DNA of 64,000 nucleotides. Origin: an uncultured Verrucomicrobiae bacterium. GTDB lineage: Bacteria > Verrucomicrobiota > Verrucomicrobiia > Chthoniobacterales > Terrimicrobiaceae. Below, piece by piece: positions 36,257 to 64,000 of the stretch. Position 1 is the stretch's first letter. Each line of letters starts with the position of its first letter. The stretch lies in the NCBI GenBank assembly GCA_963706955.1, contig CAVPOC010000008.1, forward strand, positions 32,001 through 96,000, read 5' to 3'. The translations under genes were made by a program, and so were the position numbers. Under the pieces are notes generated by a model, which worked only from the letters and a program-made list of their open reading frames with translations, did no database searches and had not been told where the DNA came from.

Positions 36257-37969
36257 CTAATCGCCACTTAGCATTTCGAGCTTACCCTTCAAGAACGCCA
36301 GACGCAGACGCTGATGGGCGACACCAGGGATGCCTTGGAGGACGCTGAGACTGTGTTTCACCGCCTCGAGCGCGACCGAAGCATCGCTTGATTCTTGAGC
36401 GGCTTTCAAATAGTCGATCGCCGCGAGCACACCGGCGCTCGGACGTTCCCCTTTGGCGATCGTCATCAGGTCGTTTCTGATCGAGCCGAGTTTGTCGATC
36501 GCCCTTCTTAAAGGTAGATTCGCGGTATTGAGAATGTCTTTCGCATAGCCCCATTTCGAGTTCGCCCAGGCTTCGACGCGCCACGCATCGTCGCGAGCCT
36601 CAATAAGGAAACGTCGAAAGTTGCCACCAATTTCCTTGCCAAACCGCAAATCGAGAATCTGGGTGGCTTCCATTACCGCCTTGCGTGTGAAATCTCGGGT
36701 CGCGTTGCTCTGTGCCACCACCGCGTCCCACCCTTGAATGATTTTGTCCAGCTTCACCCTGGCGTCAAAGGCTTTGCTGATAATGTTGCCGGCGCTGGTG
36801 GCGTACGCATCGATATATTCCAATTCGCCGAGGCTAACGCTGACGGACGGGGCTTGTTCGTCTGTTGCCAGAGGTTCGCTTGGCAGCGCGGCCTCGGCAC
36901 TTTGGAGCTCGTTGACCGCACCCCTCAAGGCGCGCGCCCCTTTCTCGAACTCTTCAACGTGACTGAGCAAGTTGTTAGCGATCTCGAACCTTTTGCTTAC
37001 CTGCTCTAGTGCCTCGAAATGGGCGGCGTGGAGTTGCAGGTAGAGAAATGCCGCATCGACTGCTCCAACCTTACCCAACTCGGCGACCGACCCCAGCGTG
37101 CGCGTCACTCCCCCTCCGGACTTGCCGGTCTTTCCTGCGGACTTCGATGCGTGCTCCCGCCTCCACCCGATGTTCCGCTCCCGCTTCCGCCCGACGTCGG
37201 CCCCCGCGGTTTTTTGGTATCGATTTCGCCTCTCGCTTCGTTTCCCGGGTAAATTTCGCCACCTCGTTCAACATGGCCGCGGGGTACCTTGGCGGGGCTT
37301 GTCGCGGATTGTCGGTTCCTCATCGTCAAAGTCTTGGCGGCGGACCACGTTCGGTTGAGTTCCAGATTGCTGCACAACATGTGTCAGCTCATGTGCCAGT
37401 AAGCGGCGTCCTTCACGCGTTCCCGGACTGAACTCACCGGCACCAAATACCATGTTGTTGCCTACGGTGTAGGCACGGGCGTTTACATCGCACGCCGATT
37501 GCTCCGCAGTGGCGCCGCGATGCACGCGCACACCCGAAAAGTCGTGATCAAAGCGCTGCTCCATCTCTCGCCGTAACGCGGGCTCAAGAGGGTCGCCAGA
37601 GCTGACCAGCGCGTGCTGCACACTGGCGGGAGCCGTAACCGCCTCACTGCCGGATTGCCCTGCATCGCGACGGATATGCCCCGCGCCGCTCACTCCACCA
37701 TGAGCTGACGTTGTCAGCACGTGCCCGGAAATCCGGTCGGCTTCCTGTTCGTAGATATCGCCCGGCCCATTAACCTTGAGCTTGGCTTGCATTATCCCTG
37801 ATCGGAGCAGTCGCCCCACCTGACGGTTACCGACCGTTCGTTGCAGGAAAGAAATTTGGTCAACGGGTGAATTTTCCCTTGGAGAAAGGTTAGGCTTCTT
37901 TGCATGAGCAGAGCAATTTCTGGTCATTGACTCACGTGTTGTGAGTGATGCTCTGTTGCTCGCGCTCAT
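36257..37969 (-). CDS. DUF4157 (eCIS-core) effector A: leader, core, Gly linker, helical C-terminus; frameshifts near 37295 and 37110
   Basis: [47 protein letters not shown]; joined from ORFs 37268-37969, 37105-37380 and 36257-37108 (last join inferred). Confidence 0.8.
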
Positions 37970-38018
37970 CTTTACTCGGTCATGCGGCTTGGCGGCCCTG
38001 CTCTTTGAACTTCGCCTG

Positions 38019-38068
38019 AGGAACCGCGCTCACCGCTGAGCATGGTCGAGGATTGCCAGCAAGATCAA
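38019..38068 (-). promoter_or_regulatory. effector A promoter/5'UTR module
   Basis: Minus strand TTGATC-N18-CATGCT, then GCGCGGTTCCT. Confidence 0.6.
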
Positions 38069-38194
38069 GCCCACAGGTCAGGGGTTCGTTAGGACAATAC
38101 GTTGTGCTTCGACTCGTTTATCTGCGATTCTCTTGCCGAACTGCTCAGTCCGCAGATTTTAGCACAACGCCGGGAAGCTGTGGGAACAGAGAAC

Positions 38195-38610
38195 CTAGTT
38201 TTTGAAGCCGACAGACCCCCATACCTTCGCATCCCTCAGACGTTGCTCCGCTTCGCGTTTCTCGCGGACCTCCTTACGCTCGGCTGCCTGACGCAAGAAG
38301 TCATCTGCCAGAGGCATCAGCACGGGGCAACACGCGCAACGGTGTCAATGGTAAATAGCCCCTCCTCGTCCGTCATGTAACCTTCTTGGGCAAAGATGGT
38401 GAACGCTTCCTCGAGGATCTGATAGTTCCTTCCCCGGGGATGTCCCGCGTCGGACTTGTGACCACAGGCGAGACTGTCGTCATAGGACCGCTCCGCCTTG
38501 CCGACCGCTGCGATCACCTGGGTCGCCACGTCACGCGTGGCGAATCGACGCCAGAGGTTCCCTTGGATCCACCCCAGTCGAGTCTTATTATCCCAGTGGA
38601 GATGCCCGTT
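38195..38610 (-). CDS. possible small ORF directly after effector B (start unclear, one frameshift)
   Basis: NINGHLHWDNKTRLGWIQGNLWRRF...YQILEEAFTIF...DTVARVA/PVLMPLADDFLRQAAERKEVREKREAEQRL*. Confidence 0.35.
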
Positions 38611-38621
38611 GATATTCGTTC

Positions 38622-41600
38622 TTAGTGCATTTGGAGAAGCTGCACCTCAATTTTACCACCGATGGCGGACGGAATAGCCGAAGGCTCCTTAACGATACGA
38701 AACACGAGGCGCATTTCGTTCGCATATCCTGGATTGTTTGGGAGCAAATCAATTTCTTCCCAGCCTATATACGGTTCCTTGGTCAAATTCTTCCGCCGAT
38801 GGGGTGGTCGTTGCGATGTCAACCGATCGATCGCTTTCTGATCGCCTCTGGCATAATCGTCGAATGCGTCCAATATTTTCTTGGCGCCCTTTTTCTCATC
38901 TGCTGTGAGGGTACGGCGGGGTCGTCCTTCGAGGCTCTTGACCCCCTCCGCATGCGGAACTGGGTCGTTGAGTCTCTGTCGGGGAAACGACTCGACCGCA
39001 CGACTCTCGGCCAGCCACTTTTCCTTTATCGCTTGGCCCTGTGGCGACTCCATCGGAACGCCGCTAATCTCCTCTGATGACGGTCCCGGCTGAGTGCGCC
39101 TGATGATCACACACGTCTCTTTGGAACGTCTGCACCAGATTCCACCACCATGGTGTTCCCAGTCATGATTGCCCAACGGTCGGTGAACGCGAGCGCCCTC
39201 ACGTTTGATCAGCTGAGGATGGGCCAGCACCTCGTCGATCTCATGTCGTAGCTGTTGCGGACCAGGTTCATCGAGAAGGCTGCTCTTGGCGACGCTTGCC
39301 TTTCGCACCTCGGCGCTTCCGCTGGCAACGTTCGTCAGATCCAAAGGCGCCGCCGCCGCCGGACGGGGTATCGTCGTCGGCTCTGGGCGCGGCTTCGCCA
39401 CCGGAGACTTTGCAGTCACTGCCGCGGCGCGCTCCGCGGCCCTCTTGATCTGCTCGTTGTTGAGATTGGACATGGTGGCGGCCACCGCATCGGCCTCCCA
39501 GTCGCAACGGAGACGACAGCCGAACAGCCAGCGCTTGGCTCCGTCCGGCAATGCCCCGATGCGGTCGAAGAATTTCCCCAACTTCCTGGAGTGGACGACC
39601 GCCTTGTCGACGATGTAGACCGCGATGTCGCCCGGGAGTTGCAGGGCGGTCATCACCTTGCCGGCGGTCCACGCCACGGCGGCGCCGGTAACCTCCGCCG
39701 CCTTGACGGCTGTCCCGAGTCGCGACTTCCTGAGCGCGTCAACGGCCTTGCCAAATTCGCCGCTCGCCGCCCGCCGTACCTTCGAGACCTGCTCAATGCT
39801 CGTTTCGAGAACCTTGAAGGCGCGCGACGCCTTTACGGCGCTGCCGAGCTTGGACCCCCAGATGGCTGCTTTGGCCCCCGTCGCCGCTCCGCCGGTCAAG
39901 AGCAGCATCGCGGCTTCGGCCATGACGTAGCCAGTTAGATAGCCATGCGCGTGCCCGGCAATGAGCGGGTTGGTGGAATGCAGCTTTTCGGCCCAGCCGG
40001 CGGCCCATTCGCCGAGCATTTGCTTGATCTGCTCTACGGTCAGCTTCTTGAGAGCACCAATGATTTTCTCCAGGTCCGAGACAAGATCTAAGGAAAAGAT
40101 GCTCTTCAACACCTCGTAAATCAGCTTTGCGATGCCGGACACCGCATCCCAGATCGCCTTGAAAAAGCCGTGGACCACGCCCGCACCGAAAGCGATCGCG
40201 TATCCGGCCTTTTCAATCAGACCCATCAAGGCATCGACGATTCGTCCGATTGCGGCCGCCGTGAGCTCTATGGGCCTCACAGCGACCTTTCCTGCGAGAA
40301 CCATCGATCCACCAATGCCAGGACCCGGTAGATTGGGGCTCCTCACCTGTATGAATCGCCGGATGTGCGCATTTTCTGCCTCGCCTCCTGGGTCGAAAGG
40401 ATGTAGCGGCGCATGGGCTCAGACATCTCTTGCAACGCCTTCGGACGCTGAATGAACTGGACCGGAACGATGATCGATTGGCCCGCCTCGATCGGTGTCG
40501 TGCGCGAAAGCTTGTTCAGCCGCGCAAGCGCAGGCGGGACGGCCGGGTTGTCCGATACGTACGCTGCGACGGCATCGAGCGTCGTTCCGGCGTCGGGGAC
40601 CAGGGCGAATACCCCCGGATAAAGCTCAATCCACTTCGGCGTGGCCGCGGACGGTGGTGCGGCTGCCGGACGGCGTCTCGGGTGGCTTGGCTTCAGTCAC
40701 AGTCCTTGTGGCAGCCCGCTCGCGCAGGATCTCGAGCAACGGGCCGCGGAAGTCTGAATCAAGCCTGAGGAAACGCTTGCGCAGGTGCTCCTGCCTGGCG
40801 CCGACGGGCGTGGTCAACGCCTTGAGGACGACCGCGGCACTCTCGTTGTCGAGCAAGCTGAACGCAGCGGTGAGCAATCGCAGGCGGCTTCTCCAGTTTT
40901 CCGAGGTAGAGGGGCGTGTCCAACGTCTCTTCGATGGCATTCATCGCGGCGAATGTGTCATCTACCCCTCCCTTCGCGATGTATGCCGCCAGCACCGCAC
41001 GCGCCTCGTTGCGATCCATCCTCTTCAGCGCCGAGGGCGCACCGGTGCGGGGTTGGCGTGCGATGGAATAATTAGCAGACAGCGACGGATGGCGCGTTTG
41101 GTTACTTTGGCCACCATGAATCCGGGCGGCTCCGGACTGTTGCACCACGTGAGTTAACTCGTGGGCAATTAGCCGGCGTCCCTGGGACGTCCCCGGGGCG
41201 AATTGGCTTTCACCAAATACAATGGCATGACCCACTGTGTAGGCGTTGGCGTTCACGTCCCGTGCCGATTGCCCAGCAGCCGCGCCCGAGTGAATCCGAA
41301 CGTTCGCGAAGTCACAGGCGAAACGTTGCTCCATCTCCTGCCGTAATCTTGTCTCCAGCGGTTTGCCAGGACTAGCAAGAGCCTGATCTACACTGGCGGC
41401 AGCCGTAGCCGTTTTATCGGCGGGTTGCCCGGTGACGCGTTGGATGTGCGGTGGAGCGCCGCCAACGGAGTGACGCGCAGACGTTGCCATCACCTTATTG
41501 GCAACGCGGTCCGCTTCCTGTTCGTAGATATCTCCCGGTTCGTTAACTTTGAGTTTCGTCTGCAGACCCAAGCGCCGTTTCTTGCTGCACTCCTCGCATT

Positions 41601-41925
41601 CGCCCGATATGCCAACTGCACCTCCGCACGCGCATTGGCGCTGTAATATCCCGTGCTCGCTCGCACGCCGCGAGGATGCATCGGCATGTGGGGAACCTGA
41701 CTTCTCTCCAGAGTTCTCGATTGTGAGCTCGGGTCGAAACAGCCTTGATCTTAGCAGCCGTTCTACTTCGCGATTTCCGACCGTTCTCTGGAGGAAAGAG
41801 ATCTGGCCAAGGGGCGAATTAATTCGTGGAGAAAGATTAGTCCTCTGTCCTTCAGAACAGGGATTTCGCGTCTTCGCTGTCTTGGACTCACGGTTTGTGA
41901 GCGATGCGGTCGCGCTTGCACTCAT
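38622..41925 (-). CDS. DUF4157 effector B (about 1100 aa): leader, CxCGG..CEEC motif, core, LysM, TM helices, RelE/HigB-like C-terminus; at least 3 frameshifts
   Basis: [12 protein letters not shown]; protein-like frames run continuously through 40759-41928, 40626-40940, an unlisted LysM frame (about 40400-40670) and 38622-40346. Confidence 0.8.
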
Positions 41926-41969
41926 CACTAGGTCATGCAGCTTGCAGTCCTACTCTCGACACCCACTTA

Positions 41970-42018
41970 AGGAATCGCGCTGATCGGCAAATTGTAGCTA
42001 AGATTCCCGGTTGGTCTA
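41970..42018 (-). promoter_or_regulatory. effector B promoter/5'UTR module
   Basis: Minus strand TAGACC-N16-TACAAT, then GCGCGATTCCT. Confidence 0.6.
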
Positions 42019-42242
42019 GCCAAGAATAGCGGGCTTGACTTCATCGTGTCCATCACCCCGATTCAGTGGATGAGCCGCTCGAGGTCACAGCAGCTGCCAC
42101 CGCGTTTCGCGACGTGTTCGATCGGAGGAGTTCGGCCTGCGTATTTTTACGAGCCGACGAGTGAGAACTGTGGCCGGGCGTATTGGCAGAACCGCACTTG
42201 GAATGCGAACTCGGGGTGGGCGACCCCTCTTTCGACGCTTTC

Positions 42243-43808
42243 CTATTTCTCCGGCTGTTTGTTCGCGGGAGGGCTACCGGTTGGGGTGATCGGCGTAGTC
42301 GTTTTCGCCGTCTGGTCGAGTTTGTCGAAGAGCTTCTCTGCGGCTGCGGCCAGCTTATCCGTTAGCACCTTAAGAGCCGGAAAATCGTCCGGAACGAGGC
42401 GCAGAGCAACAACCTTACTATAGTTCTTGGCGATCAGAGCATTTGAGTAACTTTTTCCGAAAGCCTTGCCTGCTGTGTCGGCATCGTATTTCTCGTGGAC
42501 GAGAAACTCGTAGAAATTGTCCTGTGCAAGCGCGACGTCCTTAACTTGGCCTCCGCCGGCGGCCAGTGGCCCGATCTCTTTCTTTAACGCCTGGCGTTCC
42601 TTGTCCACAGCTGCGGAATTGGCAATTTGCATGAGGCTCATGAAATCTAAAAACACCTGTGTATGCTGGCTCGTCCAGTTCGGGTCGCTCTCCATCATAA
42701 GGCGCGCATGAAGCAACTCATGGTACAACGGGTACAGCCGCAGTCAGGGTGAAGGCCTCGTCCGGGGAGCTCGTTTGTTGGAGGAACTCCTTGTCAGTAG
42801 CCAGAGGGAGGGCCCACGTTACATCAAGAAAGTGCGTCACCTGAACCCCGCCCTTGATCTTGACGCGCTTTTCTTCTCCTTTGACGATTTGCGAACCACG
42901 GAATCCCTGCGCAGCGGAAACTCTTACTTTCCAGAGATGCTCTTCGCCGCCTTTCATCGGCCCTCCTTTAATGGCGGGCGGTTCCTTAGGATTTCGGAAA
43001 TCGATTGAGGCAGGGGTGATCAACTCGGCGAGATCAGGATTCCGCTTCTTGATCTCGTCATGAACCAACTTAGAGTTCGTGGTCGGTTTCTTTGCCGGAG
43101 GATCCTTTTTCTTGGGCTGCCGCTGGATGGCGCGTGGCGCAAAACCCTGCTGGAGGACGTGGGTCAGTTCGTGCGCGATTAATTTTCTGCCTTCGCTTGA
43201 TCCGCGTCGGTATTGACCAGCACCAAATACCACGTCCTCTCCCACGGTATACGCCTGCGCGTTCAACCCTCGCGCGGAGTGTGCTGCTCTCTGATCCGCA
43301 TGCACCCGCACTCGACTGAGGTCCCGTCCAAAGCGTGCCTCCATAGAGGCACGCGTCGTCGAGTCGAGCGGCTCGCCCGGCGCACGCAGCACATCGCTAA
43401 CCAGAGATGGCGCTGCATCCTTTCCCGTTTGGCTGCCTCCGAGGCGCGTTGTCTGCAGCCCCTCATGTTCAGCGCCGAGTTGCTCCGAGTTTCGCTGGTC
43501 GCGCCCTCCGCGCCAAGGGGCAGTGCGCCGCGGTTGCGGCTCAGGCATCTTTGTCACCTCTTCCGAGATCTTATCCGCCTCCTGTTCATAAACGTCGCCA
43601 GACCTCTCCAATTTTAAGTTCGACTTGGTTCGCGTCCTGATTTCAGCAATCGCTCCACTTGGCGATTTCCGATCGCTCTTTGCAGCAAGTAAATCTGCTC
43701 AAGAGGCGCCTCTGAGGTGGCAGAAAACCTTCTCTGGCTCGAGTCAGAGAGAGCACTGCTTTTCTCCGACTCGCATGTTCGGACTAAAGGTTTGGCGCTT
43801 GTTCTCAT
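42243..43808 (-). CDS. DUF4157 effector C with a second, C-terminal HEXXH zincin-like domain; frameshifts near 43615 and 42730
   Basis: LLQRAIGNRQV, GDVYEQEAD, LIAHELTHVLQQ, then LYHELLHA...FLVHEKY. Confidence 0.8.
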
Positions 43809-43950
43809 CTTATCGCCGACAATTCCTGTCATCCCTTCATGTCGCGTGACGCCGTCTCCCCCAGGGATCTCGCCGTCTCCTCTTGCTACCGATCTCGCGC
43901 CCTCCCATTCTCCTCCACGCAGAGGGCGCCAGTTCGCGTTCGAGAAAATG

Positions 43951-45539
43951 TCAACACTTCTTCCCTTCCTCGATCGGCGGATCGGATGAGGTTACCGTCT
44001 TCGTCGCGGCAGGGGAGTCCTTCGTTACTTTTCCTTTCCCCCCTTTTGAATTCTGGCTGGTGACTACCCACCGCTTGGCACAGTCTTCTTCGCTATCCTT
44101 TTTGACCTTCGCTTCTCCCGACCACCTCCAGGTCACCATTGCGAGGGGAACTCTGTTTGCGTCTGGAGGTTGGTCGGGTTTCCACATCAGCCACATTTTG
44201 AAGCTATCTACTGCCTTGACGCGCTCGACAGATGGCGCCACCGGTTGGTGCGGGCTGTCATTGGTAGAGAATTCCACGGGGCCTGAGGAAGTGACGTGTT
44301 GCTCGTCAACGGGATCTTTCGTATCGATCCAGTCTCCGCCGGTGTTCCGGCGGAGGTTCTTACCGGTGAAGAGATGAAAAGATCGACACATATTAGTCAG
44401 CTGAACGTACTGCAAAGTTCCGGGACATCCCGTGGGAACTTCAACCTTTGAGGTAAAGGTTGCCCCGTTAGCTTTGCCGGGCGTCCCTAATATCAACGCA
44501 CATCTCCCGTTGACTTCTCTAACGCCGACAGTACCCGTGATCGCAGCGGTTAGTGATTTATAGAGCGGGACGCAGGGCGAACTTTTGGGCGGTGGGGTTT
44601 CAGGTTTGTCATCGTCTTTCTTGCGGAGCACGGCACGCGACGGCTGGCGGTCAGCTCCTTCTTGCTGAATCACGTGCGCCAGTTCGTGCGCCAGCAGCCA
44701 ACGTTCCGTGCGCGTGGTTGCCGGGTACTGCCCTGCACCGAAGACAACGTCGTTGCCGACGGTGTAGGCCAGCGCGCGAAGCGAGCGAGCCGAGTCGCGC
44801 GCCGGGGCGCCGGTATGGACGCGGACGTTCGAGAAGTCATGCCCGAACCGCTGCTCCATGTCCTGTCGAAGCGCCGGCTCGAGCGGCCTACCGCCACTGG
44901 TTAGGGTTTGGTCTACGCTGGCGGGCACCACATCCACCTGGCCATTCGATTGTCCTGAGAAGCGCTGGATACCTCGTGGAAGCGCCGCTCAACCACGGAA
45001 TCTGCCGGCGCTGCCATCAGCTTGATCGGCAATCCGATTCGCTTCCCGTTCAAAGATATCGTCGGGAGCGTTGACCGTGAGCTTAGTTTGCAGACCCAAG
45101 CGGCTTTTCTTCCGGCACTCCTCGCATTCGCCCGAATGTCAGCCGCACCTCCACATGCACATTTCCGCTGCAATATCGCGCTTCGGCCAGCGCCAAATCG
45201 CCCCGCGCCGATGGGTAGGCAGCTTCTCACGGGAGCGGACTGAACTGACCCGCCAGAGTCTCTCACCCGTTCCCCCCGATGGTCAAGCCCTTCGGCGACG
45301 AATGGCTGAAAAGATGGTTTGCCGACGGCCTGCTCCGTTTCGGGTCTTCTCGGCTTTGCTCACCCATGAATTCAACAGTCGACCTACTTCGCGATTTCCG
45401 ACGGTTCTTTGAAGGAAAGCAATTTGGTCGGTCGGCAAATTTGTCGGCGGAGAAAGCTCGGGCGTGGTTTCTTGCGACAGAGAATTCTGTGTGACGGGAC
45501 TCGCGTGCCGTCAGTGATGCTTTGAGTACCTGCGCTCAT
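43951..45539 (-). CDS. DUF4157 effector D with beta-rich C-terminal domain; several 5' frameshifts
   Basis: MSAGT../ASLTARES/PTDQIAFLQRTVGNREVGRLL, ILQRKCACGG, HDFSNVRVH, LLAHELAHVIQQ. Confidence 0.8.
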
Positions 45540-53147: not shown

Positions 53148-53150
53148 CGC

Positions 53151-54470: not shown

Positions 54471-55096
54471 TGCCACTCGCCAAAGCGCTCATTATAGATT
54501 GCGACTCGGTATTGAAGATTCCGATCCCTGTGATGTTCAATCCGCCGGAGTACCAGCTTCAGGTCACCAACCAATTCGCGGAGGTCGGCATACCTGGACT
54601 TGGCTCCTCCTTATTGCAGTTTGTCAGAGGAAGCGCCCAGACGCTAACGACAGAGCTGTTTTTTGACACGACCGATAACGGAATAGACGTGCGCGTTCAT
54701 ACGGGACTCGTCCTTGGTTTAACCAGCCTGAATAGCGAAACCCACGCCCCGCCTCGCCTGCTCTTTCTCTGGGGCTCCCTAATATTTCCCTGCGTGTTGG
54801 AAAGCGTGACGCAAACGTTTGATTACTTCAACGCGTTGGGCATGCCGCTGCGGGCGCGGCTGAATGTCACCCTGAAAGGCAACGACACCATTCAGGACCT
54901 TCTCGGCAGCATCCAACTGCTCTCGGCGGATCGCACCAAGCAGTGGATCTTCAAGAGAGGCGATACGCTGCAAAAGATCGCCGCTCGGGAATACGGCGAT
55001 CCCAATAAATGGCGGCCGATCGCAGAGGCTAATAATATCGATAATCCACTGACCATTCCCATCGGCCGAGCTCTAAAAGTTCCCGCTCTAACCTGA
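54470..55096 (+). CDS. CIS tube initiator with LysM (Afp7-like)
   Basis: VMFNPPEY, LFFDT, PPRLLFLWG, GMPLRA, GDTLQKIAAREYGDPNKWRPIAEAN. Confidence 0.92.
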   Translation: MPLAKALIIDCDSVLKIPIPVMFNPPEYQLQVTNQFAEVGIPGLGSSLLQFVRGSAQTLTTELFFDTTDNGIDVRVHTGLVLGLTSLNSETHAPPRLLFLWGSLIFPCVLESVTQTFDYFNALGMPLRARLNVTLKGNDTIQDLLGSIQLLSADRTKQWIFKRGDTLQKIAAREYGDPNKWRPIAEANNIDNPLTIPIGRALKVPALT

Positions 55097-55104
55097 TGTA
55101 ACCG

Positions 55105-56820
55105 ATGGCACTCTCGCAATCGCTGCCCGACGTCTATGTGCCAACGTTTGAGATGACCGTTGGAAATCGGAAGCTGGAGACCTCGCTCGCCAAGAGTATT
55201 ATGGATCTCACGGTTACCGAGCATTCGACGGGACCGAATTCCTTTAGTTTTCGACTGAACGATCCGGAGTTGGCCCTTATCGACGAGAGAAGAGGGCCAT
55301 TCACTGAGGGAACCCGTGTGGAGATCAAGATGGGATTCGTGGGCAAGACGCGAAAGATGATCATCGGGGAAATCTCGGCACTGGCCGCCGATTTACCCAG
55401 CAGCGGTCCGGCCACGGTGCACGTGCAGGGATTCGACTTCTTCCATGGACTCGCTCGGGGCACGGTTTACCGCCAATTTGGTGGAGAAACGCCCAATAGC
55501 GGGATGCTCGATAGTGAGATCGTCTCACGGATCGCCTCGGAAATGCAGTTGCAATCTGACGTCGAACCAACCACTGCGCGTGGGCTGAGAATTCAAAACA
55601 ACGTCACCAATCTTGATTTTCTTCTAAAGCTGGCGAAACTAAACAAATACTTCGTTCGGGTAGATTCCGGGACCCTTTACTTCGGAAGCGAACCCCCGCG
55701 ACGTCCCGAGACGATCCGGTTGGAATGGGGCAAGAATCTCTTGGACTTTTCCCCGCGGCTTAGCACGGCTGGCTTGGTGAATGAAGTGGTTGTGCGAAGC
55801 TGGGATCCGATCCAAAAACAGCGTATTTCTGTGAGCGTGAAGCGCGCCAATGAGAAGCCGAGCCTTTTATCGGAGACTGGATTGAAACAGATCAGTAAAG
55901 GATCGGGCGGGCGCTCGCAGCGTGTCATTGATGTTCCTGTTGCCAATTTGCTCGAAGCGGAGGCACTGGCAGACAGCGTTCTTAGCAATCAGCAGGTCAC
56001 TGCCATCAGCGGCAGCGGCACCTGTCTTGGGGATCCCACGATGCGCGTTGGCGGCAAGCTTGAACTCCGTGGCATTGGTCGCTTCTCAGGAACCTATTAT
56101 ATTAGCACAGTTACCCACTCCATTAGCGGAAGTGGGTACCTGACATCGTTTGAAGTGAGCGATTCAGCCCAAACTACGCGGGAATCTGCCGACGAGCCCG
56201 ATTTCTCGGGTGGTCCTGGTCGCCAGGCGGCCGTCAATGTCTTGATTGGCCTCGTCCTAGATAATCAAGACCCCGAAGGTTTGGGGCGAGTAAAGATCAA
56301 TTTGCCAGGCGTAGCGGAGGATGAGAGCGGGCATTGGGCCCGTGTGGCGGCACCGATGGCCGGCGACGGGCGCGGCATGTTCTTCTTGCCGGAAAAGAAT
56401 GATGAGGTCCTGGTCGCCTTCGAACAGGGCGATGTCACACGACCCTATGTTCTTGGAGCGCTCTGGAACGGCAAAGATAAGCCGCCGGAAGCTAATTCAG
56501 ATGGCCAAAATAATTTTCGTTTGATCAAATCGCGCAGTGGGCATCTGGTTCGCTTTGATGACAGTGACGGCGGCGAGAAAATTGAGATCATCGACAAAAG
56601 CGGGGAGAACAGTCTGACGATAGATACTAAGAGCAATTCTATCTCGATCAAGTCGGCCAAGGATGTCGTTATCGAGGCACCCCAAGGAAAAATTAGCCTC
56701 AGCGCAAAAAGCATTGAGCTGAAGAGCACAGCGGAGACCAAGGTCCAAGCACAAAGCACCATGAACCTTAAGGCGAGCGCAACCATGACGATCAAGGGCC
56801 AGCGGGTAAATATCAATTGA
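55105..56820 (+). CDS. VgrG-like spike (gpD hub fused to gpV/gp5 OB; Afp8-like)
   Basis: LEWGKNLLDFSP, GRFSGTY, DPEGLGRVK, WARVAAPMAG..RGMFFLPE..DEVLVAF. Confidence 0.93.
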   Translation: MALSQSLPDVYVPTFEMTVGNRKLETSLAKSIMDLTVTEHSTGPNSFSFRLNDPELALIDERRGPFTEGTRVEIKMGFVGKTRKMIIGEISALAADLPSSGPATVHVQGFDFFHGLARGTVYRQFGGETPNSGMLDSEIVSRIASEMQLQSDVEPTTARGLRIQNNVTNLDFLLKLAKLNKYFVRVDSGTLYFGSEPPRRPETIRLEWGKNLLDFSPRLSTAGLVNEVVVRSWDPIQKQRISVSVKRANEKPSLLSETGLKQISKGSGGRSQRVIDVPVANLLEAEALADSVLSNQQVTAISGSGTCLGDPTMRVGGKLELRGIGRFSGTYYISTVTHSISGSGYLTSFEVSDSAQTTRESADEPDFSGGPGRQAAVNVLIGLVLDNQDPEGLGRVKINLPGVAEDESGHWARVAAPMAGDGRGMFFLPEKNDEVLVAFEQGDVTRPYVLGALWNGKDKPPEANSDGQNNFRLIKSRSGHLVRFDDSDGGEKIEIIDKSGENSLTIDTKSNSISIKSAKDVVIEAPQGKISLSAKSIELKSTAETKVQAQSTMNLKASATMTIKGQRVNIN

Positions 56821-56830
56821 GGGGCAACCC

Positions 56831-57217
56831 GTGGGAATGCCAGCAGCAAAGAAAGGCGACCAGATCACGGCGGAGGACGTGCACCTTATACAGCCGCCTG
56901 GGACCTTTCCACCAGTGCCCACACAACATCCATTTCGAGGGATTATCACGGGAAGCGTGAGCACTAACGTCAACATCATGGGAAAGCCAGCCGCCATGGT
57001 AAATAGCACTGCGACGAATACGCCGGCGCATCTTCCCATTGGCGGTACTTTCGTGAAACCACCCGCTAACCGCGGCTTGATCATTCGGGGGAGCGCGACG
57101 GTCTTTATTAGTGGCCAACCGGCGGCGCGCAACGGTGACATCGCCATGACGTGCAACGATCCCGCCGATCTGCCAGTCGGCAGCGTCGTCGCTAAGGGAA
57201 ATGTGTTCATTGGCTAA
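56831..57217 (+). CDS. PAAR spike-tip protein (Afp10-like)
   Basis: PAAK, PAAM and PAARNGD motifs. Confidence 0.92.
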   Translation: MGMPAAKKGDQITAEDVHLIQPPGTFPPVPTQHPFRGIITGSVSTNVNIMGKPAAMVNSTATNTPAHLPIGGTFVKPPANRGLIIRGSATVFISGQPAARNGDIAMTCNDPADLPVGSVVAKGNVFIG

Positions 57218-57329
57218 CGGCTTTCGGATCCTGAGTGATGAAAACATCCGCTGATAGTTTAGCTGGCACGCCATCGAGGAACGATGCAGGCGCTGCCACC
57301 TTCTTAGTTGCACTATGTGTTAGATCGCG

Positions 57330-57746
57330 ATGAATGGTGAATCAGATCAACGCAATGAGTTCCTGGGAACAGGAATCGCGTTTCCGCTCAGCGTAACCGA
57401 GGAGGGACTGCTCGCGATGAATGCCCTGGATGATCATGTCCGACAATCCATCCTGCTGATCCTGCAGACCGCCAGAGGCGAGAGGGTGATGCGCCCCGGT
57501 TTCGGATGCGATCTCAACGAGCTTGTATTTGAGCCCCTCAGGCAGACAACCTTCACGCTTGCCGAACATCATGTTAAGGAGGCATTAATCCGATACGAGC
57601 CGCGGATTGAGGTGCTGGGTGTTCAGGTCGGCGTGAACCCAGAGCAGCAGGATGGCCTCCTTATTCGCCTCCGATATCGCGTTCGATCCACCGACACCAC
57701 TTTTAACCTCGTTTACCCGTTTTATGTGGAAAGGGGAGGTTTGTAA
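57330..57746 (+). CDS. gp25/GpW baseplate wedge (Afp9-like)
   Basis: FLGTGIAFP, GERVMRPGFGC, YEPRI, NLVYPFY. Confidence 0.95.
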   Translation: MNGESDQRNEFLGTGIAFPLSVTEEGLLAMNALDDHVRQSILLILQTARGERVMRPGFGCDLNELVFEPLRQTTFTLAEHHVKEALIRYEPRIEVLGVQVGVNPEQQDGLLIRLRYRVRSTDTTFNLVYPFYVERGGL

Positions 57747-60700
57747 TGGCTCTCCCTCCACCGGTTCTCGATCGTAGAGATCACGAGCGGATCGTCGATC
57801 AGCTCCGGAAACTTGCTGCCGAGTATGTTCCGGAGTGGAAGGGCTATCAGCATCCAACCGGAGACGCCGGAGTAATGTTACACCGCATCTTCACCCGGCT
57901 GCTCGAGATCACCCTCGAGCGTCTGAACAAGGCTCCGGGTATGAATCTTGATGCCTTTCTCAACGCCATGGGCGTCAGCCTCTTGCCACCTATCCCGGCG
58001 CGCGTGCCGCTAACATTCTCACTTACCTCGGGCACCGCTCCGACGCGTGTGCCGCAGGGCACTCGAGTAGGCATCGCGCCAAAAGGTGGACAGCAGGCGG
58101 TGGATTTTGAGACGGAAGCGGATCTTACCGTCGTCCCGAGCAGCCTCATCGCCGTCTGGACGATGGATCCGGCATGGGATCGTTCAGCCAATCACTTTGG
58201 GCTAATCGATGGAGGGATCGGCTTCGCACCTCTTCTGGGTGCCAAGCGGCTGTCTCACGCATTATTTCTCGGCGATGAGCAACTGCTCGATTTTCGCAGA
58301 GCGGAGCTGACTATTACCTTCGCAGGTTCTAGTAGCTCGGAGATAGAGGGCCAGCTTAGAAGAACTGTTTGGCGATACGTTTCCGACGGCCGGGCCTTTA
58401 TCCTGCCAGTCAGGGCCGGGGCCACTCCGAATCAGATCACTTTCAGTGTAGTCAACCGGATCGATCAAACGCTGCTTAAAGGTCCTAGCGAAAACCCTGC
58501 TTTGCGCCAGGGCCTGCGCAACCGGTGGCTGCATGCCGCCTTGGAGCAGTCGCTTGCGGAAGATCCCCGTCCGGAACGTCTAATCTTGAAAGATGTTCAC
58601 TTGTCGATCAGCGTGACAAATTTTCCTCCCGACTTTGCGTTCGCAAACAATGCGCCGATCGATGTCAACATGCCTTTCCAACCATTCGGTGAGCAGCCGC
58701 AGGTCGGCGACGCGTTCTACCTGGCTTCTTCCGAAGCGTTCTCTAAGCCTAATGCGAGCTGGATTCTTAGTTTTGAGTTCCCTAAAGCTCCGGATGGGCC
58801 CCCAGGCGTGCCAGACGATTCGCGATCAGCGGCCAAAACGGTCCTGGAATGGGAATTTTTCGGCCCAACCGGCTGGACGAAATTCGAATCCGTCACAGAT
58901 GAAACCGCCTCTTTGTCGAAATCGGGAGCTGTGGTCCTAAAATCGGGCGACTTGACGATGGGCGCGGTCAATGGAGAGAATGGCCTCTGGATTCGTCTGC
59001 GAATCCAGTCTGGCGACTTTGGAAGAGCCGCCGAGTACATCGCAGTGGATTCCGGAGACCCCTCCAAGGGCTTCACGCTGAAAAAGGACACCGGCAATTT
59101 GGCTCCTCCGCTCGTGACAAGGTTGACTCTCAGTTATCAGGCGAACGATGTTCCGGAAGCGGTAATTACCCAGAACGGCTTTCTGTTGGCGGAACAAACC
59201 GTGCCCAACGCCAAGGGGTTCCAGCCTTTTGTCACTCTTCAACATTTGACGCCCTCCCTTTACGCCGACACCGTGCCGTCCCTCTATCTTGGGTTCGACA
59301 AGCTTTCCCCCGAAGAGGTAATGACCCTCTTTTTCGTCGTCGTGCCCCGATCGTTTTCGGGGGACTCGGAAGCCCAGCGTGCCGCAGCTCCGACCTTGCC
59401 GGAGCAATCCCTGCACTGGGAGTATTTTAATGGCGTGACATGGGTCGAGTTGGCCGTGGTTGATCGGACCAATGCCTTCACCGAATCTGGGATGGTCGAC
59501 ATTTTAACGCCGACTGACAGCGCAGCGTTAGCCAAGTTCGATTTAAAAGAGGTTTACTGGATACGCGCTTTGCTGATCCAGACTAAGAATGATGACAAAC
59601 CGATCCGCAGCGACCCTCTGACCACCCCAGGTCTGCAGGCGATTTTCTTAAATACGGTTCCGGCTGTTCAGGCGTTAACCATAAGCAATGAAATCGTCGG
59701 TTCTGGTAACAGTTTGCCCCGACAAACTCTCCGTCTGACGCAGCACCCTGTCTTAGCGAATCCAAAGATTCTCGTGCTCGAACCTGAAGTTCCCAGCGCG
59801 GTTGAACGAGATCAATTAGAAAAGGAGGAAGGCGCGGACGCTATTCAGCCGCGCGTCAATTCGACCACCAAGCAAATGGAGAATTGGATTCGCTGGCACG
59901 AGGTTTCGGGTTTCAACGGTTCATACCCGCATAGCCGGCATTACACACTTGATCATGGCACAGGAGAAATTGCCTTTGGCGACGGCACATTTGGCCTGAT
60001 TCCTCCGCTGGGAACCAACAACATCGTGGCAAACTATCGGGTGGGTGCTGGTTCCAACGGAAACGTCCCCAAGGGAGCGGTCGCGCAGCTTAAGTCTCCA
60101 GTTCCGGGTATCGCCTCAGTCGCAAATCGGCTCGACGCCGATGGCGGAGCCGACCTTGAGACCGTCGAGAGCGCGCGAGAGCGTGGACCCCAAACACTGC
60201 GGCACCGAGGGCGCGCCGTCAGTCGCACCGATTTCGAATGGCTGGCTCGCGAGGCAGCGGGAACGAGGCTCGCACGCGTCGTCTGCTTGTCGAACACTAA
60301 CCGCACCTTAGATTTCGAGCCTGGATGGGTCACACTGGTCATCGTGCCGCAGGGCACCGAGCAAAGACCGGTTCCGAGCGCGGAACTGATTCAGCAAGTA
60401 GCGAAATCCTTCGGCAACCGCTCCTTCGCCGGTTTGAGCGCACTCAACCTGGTAAACGTCGTCGGACCAAGTTACGTGGAAGTCACTGTGGTAGCGGATG
60501 TCGTCTTGCGCGATCTCCGGCAGGCCTCTCAGGTCAAAGGGCAGATCGTCGATGTGCTCGATAAGTTTCTTCATCCGCTGACGGGTGGACCTCACGCTGA
60601 GGGATGGAAGCTGGGAAGGAACGTCTTTGTTTCCGAGATTGCTAGTGTGATCCACACCGTAGATGGCGTCGATTATTTGAAGAGCTTGCAGTTAATTCCC

Positions 60701-61285
60701 AGCCAAGCGCAGCACCGGATCGAAGTCGCTGCCCCAGGGGTCTGCGAACTCGATTTGCCGGAGAATGCGTTAGTTGTCTCGCGGGATGGCCGGAAATCAG
60801 CTCTTCTGGCCGAACCCGTCGCGGCCGGAACTGAGCTGCGGTTTCTCACCACGAAGGGTTTCCAAGTTGGCGATCGCATCATCCAGAAGCTGAATGCCGA
60901 GATCTTTAACCCTCCTCTTACCATCACTGCGGTCACAGCGGACCGTAAGAGCGCCACGCAGGTTATCGGCATTGAGGCCTGGGGATATGATCGACCAGAC
61001 CCGGGAACCCTGCTCTCGACCCCCGATCATCGTATCAAGCTGCCCGTTTCGGCTCTGGGCCAAGAATCCGCTACCCCACCTCTGCGGTTCTTGACCCTGG
61101 AGGACTTCAGCAAAAATGAGGTCGTCCAAATTCAGCTTTCCGAGCAAGGTTCAACGCCGCCACTGCTCAAGATCCGGGAGGTGTCTCCAGCGCCCAATGT
61201 TTGCGTCGGCGGGATCTCTCTCGTGTGCTCCGGACAACATCGCATCACCGTCAGCGCTCCTTCGACAGCGCAAAGCCCCGCCTAA
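57746..61285 (+). CDS. baseplate J-like protein (Afp11-like), 1179 aa
   Basis: LDRRD, FETEAD, WEYFNG..W, FGDG..G..PP, RAVSRTDFE, FLHPLTGG..GW. Confidence 0.92.
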   Translation: MALPPPVLDRRDHERIVDQLRKLAAEYVPEWKGYQHPTGDAGVMLHRIFTRLLEITLERLNKAPGMNLDAFLNAMGVSLLPPIPARVPLTFSLTSGTAPTRVPQGTRVGIAPKGGQQAVDFETEADLTVVPSSLIAVWTMDPAWDRSANHFGLIDGGIGFAPLLGAKRLSHALFLGDEQLLDFRRAELTITFAGSSSSEIEGQLRRTVWRYVSDGRAFILPVRAGATPNQITFSVVNRIDQTLLKGPSENPALRQGLRNRWLHAALEQSLAEDPRPERLILKDVHLSISVTNFPPDFAFANNAPIDVNMPFQPFGEQPQVGDAFYLASSEAFSKPNASWILSFEFPKAPDGPPGVPDDSRSAAKTVLEWEFFGPTGWTKFESVTDETASLSKSGAVVLKSGDLTMGAVNGENGLWIRLRIQSGDFGRAAEYIAVDSGDPSKGFTLKKDTGNLAPPLVTRLTLSYQANDVPEAVITQNGFLLAEQTVPNAKGFQPFVTLQHLTPSLYADTVPSLYLGFDKLSPEEVMTLFFVVVPRSFSGDSEAQRAAAPTLPEQSLHWEYFNGVTWVELAVVDRTNAFTESGMVDILTPTDSAALAKFDLKEVYWIRALLIQTKNDDKPIRSDPLTTPGLQAIFLNTVPAVQALTISNEIVGSGNSLPRQTLRLTQHPVLANPKILVLEPEVPSAVERDQLEKEEGADAIQPRVNSTTKQMENWIRWHEVSGFNGSYPHSRHYTLDHGTGEIAFGDGTFGLIPPLGTNNIVANYRVGAGSNGNVPKGAVAQLKSPVPGIASVANRLDADGGADLETVESARERGPQTLRHRGRAVSRTDFEWLAREAAGTRLARVVCLSNTNRTLDFEPGWVTLVIVPQGTEQRPVPSAELIQQVAKSFGNRSFAGLSALNLVNVVGPSYVEVTVVADVVLRDLRQASQVKGQIVDVLDKFLHPLTGGPHAEGWKLGRNVFVSEIASVIHTVDGVDYLKSLQLIPSQAQHRIEVAAPGVCELDLPENALVVSRDGRKSALLAEPVAAGTELRFLTTKGFQVGDRIIQKLNAEIFNPPLTITAVTADRKSATQVIGIEAWGYDRPDPGTLLSTPDHRIKLPVSALGQESATPPLRFLTLEDFSKNEVVQIQLSEQGSTPPLLKIREVSPAPNVCVGGISLVCSGQHRITVSAPSTAQSPA

Positions 61286-61286
61286 C

Positions 61287-62318
61287 ATGCCGCTGCCAAT
61301 TCCCCCTCTCGACGATCGCAGTTTCGACCAATTGGTGGACGAGGCCAAGGCGCTAATTCCAAAACACTTTCCCGCCTGGACCGACCACAACTTTTCTGAC
61401 CCCGGCATCGCGTTTCTGGACCTGTTCGCCTTTCTCATGGAGAACGCGATTTACCAGATCAACCGCGTCCCAGAACGATCGCTCGAACATTTCGCCAGCC
61501 TGCTGGGGGTGGCGCGCCGACCGAGTGAACCCATCGAGATGTTGTTTCGGAGAGTTCGCGAGAAGTTAGACACGCGTGAGCGTGCGATCACTGAGAATGA
61601 AATAGAGCAGCAGATCCTCGCGCAACCGAAGGAGCGGTGGCGGCAAGAACAGAAAATCGCCCGGGCCGAAGTGATCCTGGATTTACAGGCCGCCGACGAT
61701 GTGCGCCATCCGGAACTAACGTTAAAGATCGTCATTGTCCCTGAACCAAGTTCCGAAGAGGACAGTGCTCCAGTGCCTGCCGATAAGCTTCGCCAAGACA
61801 TCTTTGAATTCCTTAGTGAGCGGGTTCTGATTGGCACCCGGCTTAAGATAGTGCCTCCCGACTATTATTCTTCTTTTCAACTTAGAGCTACTGTCGTTCG
61901 CAGCGGCCAGAGCACACTCGATCGGGCGACCGTCCGTCGCAATGTGGCGAACGCGGTTCGCAAATTTCTCCATCCCACTCTCGGCGGCAAGGACGGGCGT
62001 GGCTGGCCATTGGGACGGTCGATCTTTCGGTCGGAGCTCTACAAGGTGATCGAAGGTCTTCCCGGCGTTGACCATGTCCGCGAGTTGCTCCTTCTCGATA
62101 GCCAAGAGGTTCATACCCGCGAGTCTACCGGTGGCGATGCATCGGTCTCTGCGCGACTCGGGGCGGAGTTGTTGTCGCCGGCGGCCGCTCCGCTCCTTCC
62201 GCTCTCAGCGAATCAGCGCCACTCGCCCGAGACCGTCTCGGAGCTGCCTCTGCCCGGGCCCAGCTCGCTCATTCGGTGGACTGAGCGAAGCTTCGAAGTG
62301 ACGGTCGTAGATGAATGA
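61287..62318 (+). CDS. short baseplate J-like protein
   Basis: LDDRSF..WTDHNFSDPGI, RAIT, FLHPTLGG..GWPLGR; start reassigned to ATG 61287. Confidence 0.88.
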   Translation: MPLPIPPLDDRSFDQLVDEAKALIPKHFPAWTDHNFSDPGIAFLDLFAFLMENAIYQINRVPERSLEHFASLLGVARRPSEPIEMLFRRVREKLDTRERAITENEIEQQILAQPKERWRQEQKIARAEVILDLQAADDVRHPELTLKIVIVPEPSSEEDSAPVPADKLRQDIFEFLSERVLIGTRLKIVPPDYYSSFQLRATVVRSGQSTLDRATVRRNVANAVRKFLHPTLGGKDGRGWPLGRSIFRSELYKVIEGLPGVDHVRELLLLDSQEVHTRESTGGDASVSARLGAELLSPAAAPLLPLSANQRHSPETVSELPLPGPSSLIRWTERSFEVTVVDE

Positions 62319-63472
62319 CGGGAACAAAACGAATGCCTAATCATTCCACACGTCCGATTCAATTCCGCGACTATCTCCCGGAGCTTTTGCGTGGGGATGA
62401 GTCAGACGCTAACAGCTTCCAGAATCGCTTCCTTAAAGCCTTTGAAGACTTATTCGAAGAGCTGCAAAGCGTCATCGAAGGCGTTTCATCAGGAGATCTC
62501 CAACTGATTGCCGATTCCGTGCCATCCTCCGTGGACGGTTCCCAGAAAATACAAATCAACCTGAGATCGCCTCCCGATAAGCCGCCAAAATTCCCGGCCG
62601 ATACCTTCGTCACGCTCGCGCGAGGTGACACCGACTCCACCACGCTCGCGGAGGAATATCCCGGAAAGAATCCTCAATCGCTTTTTGTCCGAGATGCCGA
62701 CTTTGCCCATTCGGTAGCAGCGGGAGACGAAATCGTCCTCCACGCCGGTGGTTTGCCAGACTTGTTCAACCCTGATCTGACACCGCCCCCACAGCTCGCC
62801 CGCCGGCTTCACCTGCACGAATACCAAGTGGATCCCGATTCCACCTTTCTGAATTTTCTGGCCAGCTGGATCGGCCTGCCGTTGCGTAACGAGCTCATCC
62901 CTCGGGGAGGTGAAACCGATCCCCAGGGCCAGCTGCGGGTCGATGACGGATGGTACGAGCGACGCAAGGCCCGCTGGAATCGACACCTTGTGCGCAGCGC
63001 CTTGGACATCTATCCCCGACGTGGCACGCGCGCAGGTGTTGAAGGAATGCTCCGAGCCTGGCTCAAAGATGACCTCGGTGAGAACGGAGTTATGGTCACT
63101 GACCTCTTGCGCGCTTATACGGATGTCGATGCCGTTTTTCAGTTGGGCGTCCGGGCAACTCTGGGAGTTGACACTGTCCTTGGCGAGGGGCCTCCCTTCT
63201 TCTTCGTCACCGATCTGGTGGTGGATCCCACGGTGCGCGGGCTGCGCAATCCGGCCGGAATTGATGTTTTCATTCGTGAGGCTCGATTCATCCTGGAAGC
63301 GGAGACCCCGGCCCACACCTATTTCCAGCTCCGGGTCCATGCCCAGACAATGCAATTGGCGCCGCCGCCAGGGCAGGAGGTCGCCGGCGAGATTTATGCT
63401 CAGCTGGGTGAAACCACATTGTTGTGGGGTGAGCCGTCGATCTTCCTTTCGACGCCTACCGAACAACCATGA
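62315..63472 (+). CDS. phage tail protein (P2 gpI-like baseplate component)
   Basis: DYLPELL, RFLKAFE, FLNFLASWIG, YPRRGTRAG, ETPAHT. Confidence 0.85.
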   Translation: MTGTKRMPNHSTRPIQFRDYLPELLRGDESDANSFQNRFLKAFEDLFEELQSVIEGVSSGDLQLIADSVPSSVDGSQKIQINLRSPPDKPPKFPADTFVTLARGDTDSTTLAEEYPGKNPQSLFVRDADFAHSVAAGDEIVLHAGGLPDLFNPDLTPPPQLARRLHLHEYQVDPDSTFLNFLASWIGLPLRNELIPRGGETDPQGQLRVDDGWYERRKARWNRHLVRSALDIYPRRGTRAGVEGMLRAWLKDDLGENGVMVTDLLRAYTDVDAVFQLGVRATLGVDTVLGEGPPFFFVTDLVVDPTVRGLRNPAGIDVFIREARFILEAETPAHTYFQLRVHAQTMQLAPPPGQEVAGEIYAQLGETTLLWGEPSIFLSTPTEQP

Positions 63473-63528
63473 CTCGCACAAATATGACAAATCCTCGCAC
63501 TGCCTGAGGTCAGAAAGAAAACAAGAAT

Positions 63529-64000
63529 ATGCCTGAAGACAACATCAACAAGCGAATGTATTATTTCGACCGTCAATTCTTGCGAGCCCGCGATTTCAAG
63601 GTCGAGCAGCAATATCATATCGACCGCCACCGCCGGCATAATCGCCTGCTGCATACGCCGGGAGTGGCCACGCCGCATGATCTTACGGTTATGGGTGAGG
63701 AGGGAGATCTTTTGATAACAGTGACCGCGGGCACGGCGATAGACAAAGAGGGTCGTGAAATCATACTCCTAAAGCCAAGACCAATAACTCTCCCTTTCGA
63801 ATTGGGTGAGACTCTCGAGGTTGTCATAAATTTTCAGGACAAGCCGGACGATCGGAGCAGTGATCCCGGCCTGGATGACTTCACACGGGTCACCGAAGAA
63901 CCCAATGTTCAGATCGTTGGCTCTGAGATAACACCCGAGCTCAAGCAAATGATCAATGAAGGCACCGCGTTCCGGCTGGCGAGGATGGAGGTGGTGATCG
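63529..64000 (+). CDS. tail-fibre-like protein N-terminus (Afp13-like), runs off the window
   Basis: MPEDNINKRMYYFDRQFLRARDFKVEQQYHIDRHRRHNRLLHTPGV...VTAGTAIDKEGREI. Confidence 0.8.
   Translation, partial: MPEDNINKRMYYFDRQFLRARDFKVEQQYHIDRHRRHNRLLHTPGVATPHDLTVMGEEGDLLITVTAGTAIDKEGREIILLKPRPITLPFELGETLEVVINFQDKPDDRSSDPGLDDFTRVTEEPNVQIVGSEITPELKQMINEGTAFRLARMEVVI

Follow-up and report, generated by a model that had tools for sequence, protein, structure and literature searches.

An uncultured Verrucomicrobium from soil with a probable extracellular contractile injection system and a divergent array of five DUF4157 cargo genes

The window analysed here, a stretch of 64,000 nucleotides (G000:C8:32001-96000) from the 4.16-Mb, 15-contig assembly of an uncultured Verrucomicrobiae bacterium, carries the genes of an Afp/PVC-like extracellular contractile injection system (eCIS) and, head-to-head with them, five cargo genes of the family PF13699 (DUF4157, now "eCIS_core"). 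Positions are those of the window unless a contig is named. The cargo genes, numbered E1 to E5 from the one beside the ATPase gene to the outermost, occupy 36257-47052 on the minus strand, and the injection operon runs from 47303 to 64000 on the plus strand. We interpret the locus, with a probability of about 85%, as the single contractile injection system of a soil Verrucomicrobium together with its cargo genes, which would have been diversified by recombination. A first-pass annotation, made from the letters alone, had proposed a probable verrucomicrobium as the source, and the closest genomes are indeed labelled 'uncultured Verrucomicrobiae bacterium'.

The operon is unbroken from 47303 to the end of the window, all of its genes lie on the plus strand, and every core Afp/PVC family was matched in Pfam. 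It opens with an AAA+ ATPase of the Afp15/Pvc15 type (47303-49750; PF00004, 7e-32, and winged-helix PF22977, 6e-62), which is followed by the cap or terminator protein (49861-50715; Pvc16_N PF14065, DUF4255, 3e-29), the contractile sheath (50761-52152; PF04984 and PF17482, 1.8e-15 and 1.1e-14) and the gp19-like inner tube (52191-52619; PF06841, 6e-45). Next come a small 121-aa protein resembling a tail assembly chaperone (52633-52998; phrog_508, 4e-7), a 439-aa protein (53151-54470), an Afp7-like tube initiator with LysM (54470-55096; CIS_tube PF19266, 1.9e-27, and PF01476), a VgrG-like spike (55105-56820; Phage_base_V PF04717, 1.9e-27), a PAAR tip (56831-57217; PF05488, 1.2e-17), the gp25 baseplate protein (57330-57746; PF04965, 1.2e-24) and a Baseplate_J protein of 1,179 aa (57746-61285; PF04865, 2.3e-21, and TIGR02243). 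The 439-aa open reading frame (ORF) had no Pfam, NCBIfam or PHROG match, and its position between the tube genes makes it a candidate tape measure (Afp14). A second gene (61116-62318) resembles the C-terminal third of TIGR02243 (positions 484-658), and behind it lie a Tail_P2_I/CIS12-like gene (62315-63472; weak CIS12 match in NCBIfam) and the start of a CIS13-like fibre gene that continues past the window (63529-64000; NF053767, 2e-13, below its cut-off). A sheath with a gp19 tube, the gp25/Baseplate_J/spike/PAAR/LysM set, an Afp15-type ATPase with a Pvc16 cap and a CIS13-like fibre gene thus occur together, and this gene set supports assignment to the Afp/PVC-type eCIS. Two side observations concern single genes: the cap protein ends in a CarboxypepD_reg-like beta-sandwich domain (PF13620, 9e-10), and the gene at 61116-62318 shares 170 nt with the end of the 1,179-aa baseplate gene, of which it may be a partial duplicate.

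No capsid, portal, terminase or type VI secretion system (T6SS) membrane family was found in Pfam and PHROG scans of 641-33909, of 34106-35713 and of ORFs from the 16 kb that follow the window; the scans covered 30 frames of 641-33909 and, beyond the window, 15 ORFs in Pfam and 16 queries in PHROG, several ORFs having no match of any kind. The first-pass annotation had described an ATPase-to-fibre operon free of such genes within the window, had assigned it to the Afp/PVC-like eCIS, and had named capsid, terminase or tssJLM genes just outside as a refutation. The description and the assignment agree with the family matches, and that refutation does not apply because no head or T6SS gene was seen across the surveyed span. 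Since the whole genome has one sheath gene and one ATPase orthologue, this is its single contractile injection system.

The five cargo genes share their front parts and differ in their ends, as had been proposed. PF13699 matched all five, E1 in two pieces (scoring 44.7 and 42 bits where the cut-off is 22), and each has the HExxHxxQQ core, as HELTHVVQQ in three genes and as HELAHVIQQ and HELTHVLQQ in the other two. The N-terminal parts are 34-67% identical between array genes (39-67% when the first pieces are compared), and in all five the DUF4157 domain stands in the N-terminal half with a variable C-terminal domain behind it. When the C-terminal parts were compared by BLAST at E<=1, a 21-22-residue linker common to E1 and E5 was found (E 4e-6), the E1-E4 and E2-E4 matches were borderline (E 0.004-0.01) and the remainder had E>=0.3. 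Apart from this linker and the two borderline matches, the five C-termini are mutually unrelated. The array lies within about ten genes of the eCIS core, with the start of E1 250 bp from the ATPase gene and all five genes within 11 kb. The 250-bp spacer between E1 and the ATPase gene (47053-47302) is presumably a shared control region; a scan of it for sigma-70-like promoters gave no match. In a complex prediction of the ATPase with the N-terminal region of E4, that region had a predicted local distance difference test (pLDDT) score below 50, which is not a test of disorder.

Each cargo gene, read on the minus strand, has its own C-terminal end. E1 (45721-47052) consists of the N-terminal region, DUF4157, a Gly-rich linker and a C-terminus of ~170 aa with one hydrophobic segment. 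E2 (43951-45539; PF13699, 8.8e-31) has a C-terminus orthologous to an intact 422-aa gene of the same-genus genome G001 (L003:3302-4567; 74% identity over 256 aa), and its last ~90 codons may be read-through behind a frame break near 44238. E3 (42243-43832) has an intact orthologue of 567 aa in the same genome, the three pieces of E3 being colinear with L003:4828-6528 at 77%, 86% and 93% identity, and it ends in a second, un-named HExxH domain. With the C-terminal 310 residues of the G001 orthologue as query, 54 representative relatives were obtained. In an alignment of 28 rows, 27 of them database relatives, the H, E and H of the HExxH motif and a downstream E-K were invariant, and DUF4157 preceded the domain in 17 of the 27. 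From this motif the domain is read as a second zincin-like peptidase. Its AlphaFold (AF2) model was confident (pLDDT 91, predicted template modelling score 0.85) and had no Foldseek match at E<=0.001. The best result of a wide VIA-align search (Z 7.8) covered the helical part only and lay within the tool's quoted noise, and weak zinc-peptidase rows for the model (4l7a, 7xyo, 4put, 4ka8) were not used as evidence.

E4 (38622-41925; PF13699, 4e-30), of ~1,100 aa, has a central module that extends to RWLFGC..C.WE and then a rare 224-aa terminal domain. P0001, a 909-aa protein from metagenomes, is 83% identical to E4 and continuous over all three of its frame breaks. The C-terminal piece of E4 found 35 proteins, most of which cover about half of the piece and 30 of which are annotated PF13699. 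Among the relatives whose sequences were compared, the module is common up to the Cys motif RWLFGC..C.WE, and the five checked in Pfam end in Ntox4 (Nitrosococcus oceani, P0004), Tox-REase-9, GH-E, AHH or EndoU. For the last 224 residues of E4, two homologues were found in a collection of 5.8 billion clusters, within the length range searched. A RelE/ParE-like look of the last ~100 residues was dropped when Pfam gave no support, and a scan of metagenome contigs with the C-terminal piece gave 43 pattern matches, none of them confirmed. E5 (36257-37969; PF13699, 1.2e-32) ends in a ~280-aa domain predicted to be all-helical, with ten helices in the AF2 model (pLDDT 77.5). Its C-terminal 277 residues have 51 homologues, 38 of them annotated PF13699 and mostly 430-584 aa long. 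Foldseek returned only generic helical repeats and ClyA/Hbl for this model (E>0.08), which we do not take as a fold match.

No credible family was found for the C-termini of E1 to E5 in Pfam (E<=10) or NCBIfam (E<=0.01), and a sequence search of the PDB with five queries gave nothing below E 0.02. The best ESM Atlas scores (0.79 and 0.81) fall below the level where chance hits are common, and the polymorphic-toxin-like rows for E4 among them were kept as a lead only.

We compared the locus across relatives, as the first-pass annotation had proposed, and found C-termini that are partly different rather than identical. An ATPase match at E<=1e-50 was present in 10 of the 18 same-genus genomes searched; four of them hold full-length orthologues at 74-78% identity, and the match in G015 is fragmented. 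Intact divergent DUF4157 arrays lie beside the ATPase gene in G001 (four genes), G004 (three) and G010 (two), with open frames of 422-2101 aa, while G009 has one divergent DUF4157 gene and in G015 both strands bear one such gene upstream of the fragmented ATPase match. E2 and E3 are orthologous to the first two genes of the G001 array, in the same order (74% for E2 and 77-93% for E3), and no orthologue of E1, E4 or E5 was found in the same-genus arrays compared; array content therefore differs between species.

A trace of exchange is seen within the array itself. The gaps between cargo genes measure ~100-320 nt, except for a lone 650-nt gap between E4 and E5 that contains no new ORF and is taken up by a toxin-gene remnant. 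This remnant (38198-38646, minus strand), directly behind the E4 stop codon, matches the last ~125 residues of a 518-aa DUF4157 gene of G004 (L004:9825-11378) at 71% over 83 aa and 86% over 28 aa. Outside its own genome, its sole other match is a weak one of 19 aa in L003 (E 0.003). The N-terminal half of the G004 protein resembles E5. The fragment is the orphan 3' end of another cargo C-terminus, of the displaced kind that polymorphic toxin loci leave. Across the array and its relatives, three types of junction between shared and variable parts can be distinguished, namely directly after the HExxHxxQQ core (E2 and E3), after a linker rich in glycine, as in E1, E5 and proteins of G004 and G010, and behind a central module of ~330 residues (E4). 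The earlier proposal of a swappable repertoire is supported by the relatives, whose arrays hold between one and four intact genes and differ in part of their C-termini, by the remnant and by the varied toxin ends of the E4 relatives.

To place this layout in a wider setting, 80 related ATPase loci from other phyla were inspected. The usual arrangement is a DUF4157 gene downstream on the same strand, seen in 39 of the 69 loci for which 3 kb or more of downstream sequence was available. Of the 58 loci whose upstream sequence reaches 3 kb or more, 4 have a divergent DUF4157 gene there, and two of these four are same-genus genomes. The divergent, ATPase-first layout is a minority form. The five-gene array is not unique because one of the 80 loci, from a Pyrinomonadaceae metagenome-assembled genome, reaches the same maximum of five DUF4157 genes.

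In the assembly as it stands, the array is split into 18 stop-to-stop pieces by ~20 single-base frameshifts, far beyond chance. The breaks were located by frameshift-tolerant alignment against natural intact homologues, which placed 7-9 frame changes in E1 (near 47019, 46922, 46695, 46628, 46538, 46440, 46415, 46303 and 46224), at least 4-6 in E2, three in E3 (near 43634, 43603 and 42735), three in E4, and one in E5 (near 37287) with one more near 37149; these homology-guided alignments contained no in-frame stop codon in the array. For comparison, contigs of four runs on soil or rhizosphere, each run belonging to another study, were aligned to 36001-55900. Among the differences listed, all 12 single-base length differences fell in 37149-47077, and nine of the 12 lay within 5 nt of an independently inferred break. 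The 18 listed contig pieces over the array held 208 substitutions and 45 gaps in 18,355 nt, and the 14 listed pieces over the structural genes held 69 substitutions and no gap in 21,171 nt; one contig piece over E2 had 11 gaps against 8 substitutions. Because such gap-to-substitution ratios are unlike the natural divergence of coding DNA, the breaks are probably assembly errors, and we consider it likely that they pile up in DNA that is paralogous and variable between strains. If so, the cargo genes would probably be intact in the organism. The first-pass annotation was right that the array falls into more than a dozen pieces; this fragmentation, which the contigs of other studies lack, most likely stems from the assembly and would then be no feature of the locus.

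A genome-wide codon-usage Viterbi scan of frame-switch density was too coarse, as it registered only six events in the array and for the most part counts normal gene junctions. The low cover of run X1 over 43969-45960, and contig joints with short sides or low identity, were not used to call array members present or absent. The same Viterbi scan listed five 10-kb windows with 14-19 same-strand switches against a median of 4 (C6:200001-210000, C4:57501-67500, C2:225001-235000, C8:1057501-1067500 and C3:735001-745000), which may be further error-rich or repeat-rich patches.

Some observations count against the picture drawn so far, for the breaks as well as for the function of the locus. As to the breaks, 58 further length differences fall outside the positional count of 12, and break density is ~2 per kb in the array, about 20 times that of the left 36 kb, with no break in the 16.7-kb structural part. 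Uniform sequencing error fails to predict such clustering, and a simple homopolymer error model does no better because homopolymer density is equal in both regions. Real decay in this strain could account for it: the breaks would then be true mutations and the five genes pseudogenes beside an intact machine, an explanation that is helped by the concentration of ~20 breaks in the 10.8-kb array, by the 7-9 breaks in E1 alone and by an array substitution rate against the other samples 3.4 times that of the structural genes. We nevertheless judge decay unlikely. Contigs of four independent studies differ from the assembly in length by single bases exactly at the breaks, the ratios of 45:208 and 11:8 are far from natural divergence, in-frame stops are lacking, and the arrays of the same genus are intact. 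Genes of the housekeeping type are split as well, together with two of eight fibre paralogs described below: an FAD/BBE oxidase gene (8438-9874, minus strand) lies in three pieces, GalT (galactose-1-phosphate uridylyltransferase; 26018-27100, minus strand) has most of its N-terminal domain out of frame, and a methyltransferase gene (33096-33909, plus strand) has an overlapping frame behind it.

As to function, loading, injection and toxicity are inferred from the genes. No C-terminal domain of the five matches a Pfam or NCBIfam family or a solved structure, so that each of them is a putative toxin, and no immunity gene was found between the cargo genes, where classical antibacterial polymorphic toxin loci carry one directly downstream of each toxin. 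The lack of immunity genes agrees with the remark of Zhang et al., in the part of the paper that was available, that PVC-type toxins often have none (PMC3482391). The particle might also never leave its producer, working inside or attached to the cell as in the Streptomyces contractile injection systems (CIS) and the thylakoid-anchored cyanobacterial CIS, with DUF4157 proteins that serve the producer's own life cycle. Sequence does not separate released from cell-bound systems, and DUF4157 effectors have reportedly been seen with actinobacterial CIS too. The CIS13-like gene and eight fibre paralogs, three with S74 ends typical of receptor-binding fibres, argue against a retained particle, as do the nuclease toxins among the relatives of E4, and we regard it as improbable. 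Still less probable, to the point of being hardly credible, is a prophage tail module, or a tailocin whose killing depends on nothing but membrane puncture, with the DUF4157 genes as unrelated neighbours. Its sheath, tube, baseplate and fibre families are indeed common to phages; against it stand the Pvc16_N cap, the CDC48-like AAA ATPase with a winged-helix domain and PF13699, which passages of PMC8213781 treat as eCIS markers, the failure to find head, portal or terminase families in 47 kb of upstream and 16 kb of downstream sequence, and the DUF4157 genes beside the ATPase in the 39 of 69 related loci mentioned above.

Downstream of the CIS13-like gene, beyond the window, eight tandem fibre paralogs were found (G000:C8:96609-107173). 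They share their N-terminal ~130-200 residues at 59-83% identity and diverge in their C-termini, they match PHROG tail-fibre families, three of the eight end in Peptidase_S74 (endosialidase-chaperone), and two of the eight are split in the present assembly. Fibre paralogs also occur in relatives, with six in the locus and one elsewhere in G001 and six in G010, so that three genomes of the genus hold 6-8. The eCIS fibre catalogue of 2026 lists, in the part retrieved, at most five fibres per locus (PMC12923769), and measured against this maximum the eight paralogs plus the CIS13-like gene are the most unusual element of the locus.

To the left of the array lie ordinary metabolic and envelope genes, according to Pfam scans of the 30 frames of 641-33909, and then an FGGY kinase gene (34106-35713). 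At the outer edge of the array, 35835-35965 is a dispersed repeat of ~85-130 nt, with 18 partial copies at 76-92% identity on contigs C2, C3, C8 and C10. A clostripain-family (Peptidase_C11) gene (C8:108767-110008, minus strand), convergent to the end of the fibre array, closes the locus on the other side. Four further PF13699 genes occur elsewhere in the genome as long open frames, far from the only CIS locus (C14:52636-55593, C13:79248-81590, C8:1008324-1009904 and C8:162542-164674). The C14 gene has the same N-terminal region as the array, the C13 gene contains part of the E4 central module (26% over 193 aa), and the frame at C8:162542 has an end that looks out of frame.

How such a locus might work can be proposed by analogy with described systems. 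DUF4157 proteins are established eCIS cargo and toxin markers (passages of PMC8213781, PMC11297309 and PMC3482391), which is how the first-pass annotation had seen them; as far as these sources were available, it was Geller 2021 and Danov 2024 that turned DUF4157 into a marker of eCIS, and a verrucomicrobial case is listed there. A close model is AlgoCIS, whose cargo proteins Cgo1 and Cgo2 consist, according to excerpts of the study, of a disordered system-specific N-terminal domain, DUF4157 and a variable C-terminal domain; deletion of the N-terminal domain abolishes loading and deletion of DUF4157 does not, the AAA+ protein Alg15 is proposed to unfold the cargo, and the cargo is found in the tube lumen (bioRxiv 10.64898/2026.05.27.728243). 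Zhang et al. 2012, in the excerpt available, describe a constant PVC-metallopeptidase with variable toxins, for which autoproteolytic release was proposed (PMC3482391).

On this basis, our proposal for the injection system builds on direct observations, which are the gene content, the shared and variable parts of the cargo, the differences between relatives and the remnant. The plus-strand operon would produce a phage-tail-like particle from ATPase, cap, sheath, tube, chaperone, probable tape measure, LysM initiator, spike, PAAR, baseplate and fibres. Three parts make up each cargo protein: first ~60-130 residues common to the array, then the zincin-like DUF4157 domain, and last a putative effector domain of its own. 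By analogy with Cgo1 and Cgo2, the shared region may be a loading sequence, which the neighbouring AAA+ ATPase would use to feed the cargo into the tube lumen. DUF4157 may be a peptidase with an accessory or releasing role, and the target cell would be where the C-terminal domain acts. The array would diversify by recombination at the three junction types, one such event probably having left the remnant behind E4.

The architecture is already in print (Zhang 2012, Geller 2021, Danov 2024), with experimental proof from Cgo1 and Cgo2 of AlgoCIS; the present locus adds the combination of multiple cargo genes with multiple fibres, and un-named effector domains. In Afp and PVC, the ATPase and cap genes come last and the toxins stand behind them on the same strand, whereas the present operon begins with ATPase and cap, and its cargo genes point the other way. 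With the Afp of Serratia entomophila and the PVC of Photorhabdus the locus shares the core set and, according to passages of PMC3482391 and PMC8213781, the position of the effectors at the ATPase/cap end; the cargo of these systems lacks DUF4157 in the description excerpted from bioRxiv 10.64898/2026.05.27.728243. AlgoCIS of Algoriphagus machipongonensis shares the common cargo N-terminal domain, DUF4157, the variable C-terminus and an AAA+ ATPase in the locus, which in AlgoCIS is implicated in loading; it differs in having two cargo genes against five divergent and four remote ones here, in that the ATPase comes first here, and in that the present system is known through its genes. The PVC toxins of Zhang et al. 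have, in the passages available, the same N-terminal HExxHxxQ peptidase, variable toxins, several genes per genome and often no adjacent immunity gene, and the Nitrosococcus Ntox4 named there (PMC3482391) occurs in the E4 relative P0004, whereas the E4 central module, the E3 HExxH family and the E5 helical family are not mentioned in those passages of PMC3482391. Another soil verrucomicrobial eCIS, that of Candidatus Udaeobacter copiosus, has a toxin, EAT13, flanked by DUF4157 genes in the part of PMC8213781 available; it differs in that EAT13 is an actin cross-linking toxin without DUF4157, and the likeness is one of description only. Published multi-fibre eCIS likewise have several fibres with a common N-terminal baseplate anchor and varied distal parts, and at most five per locus compared with the eight plus a CIS13-like gene here; the word stem 'Verrucomicrobi' is absent from the text of PMC12923769.

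A further idea, which we put forward tentatively and hold to be more doubtful than not, is combinatorial delivery. One machine would serve six to nine cargo genes, namely the five DUF4157 genes beside it and up to four remote ones, among which at least the C14 gene has the loading head, and would combine them with eight alternative fibres on a common baseplate anchor. Particles would be mixed within a clone, arrays would be reshuffled at their conserved 5' parts, and the clustering of errors in these arrays would reflect strain heterogeneity in the population sampled. If this is true, a single clone sends out particles that vary in both target and payload.

Our findings also bear on annotation: in this long-read-style assembly, paralogous arrays gather frame errors, and such loci therefore come to resemble pseudogene fields, which calls for caution in automated annotation. 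At least three candidate effector domain families without a Pfam model are put forward here, the second HExxH domain of E3, the central module of E4 with its rare terminal domain and the helical domain of E5. With this locus, a genus of Verrucomicrobia would join those eCIS that use a single loading head for many different payloads, its cargo forming a natural catalogue, and the three suggested junctions for payload exchange may help the engineering of loadable cargo.

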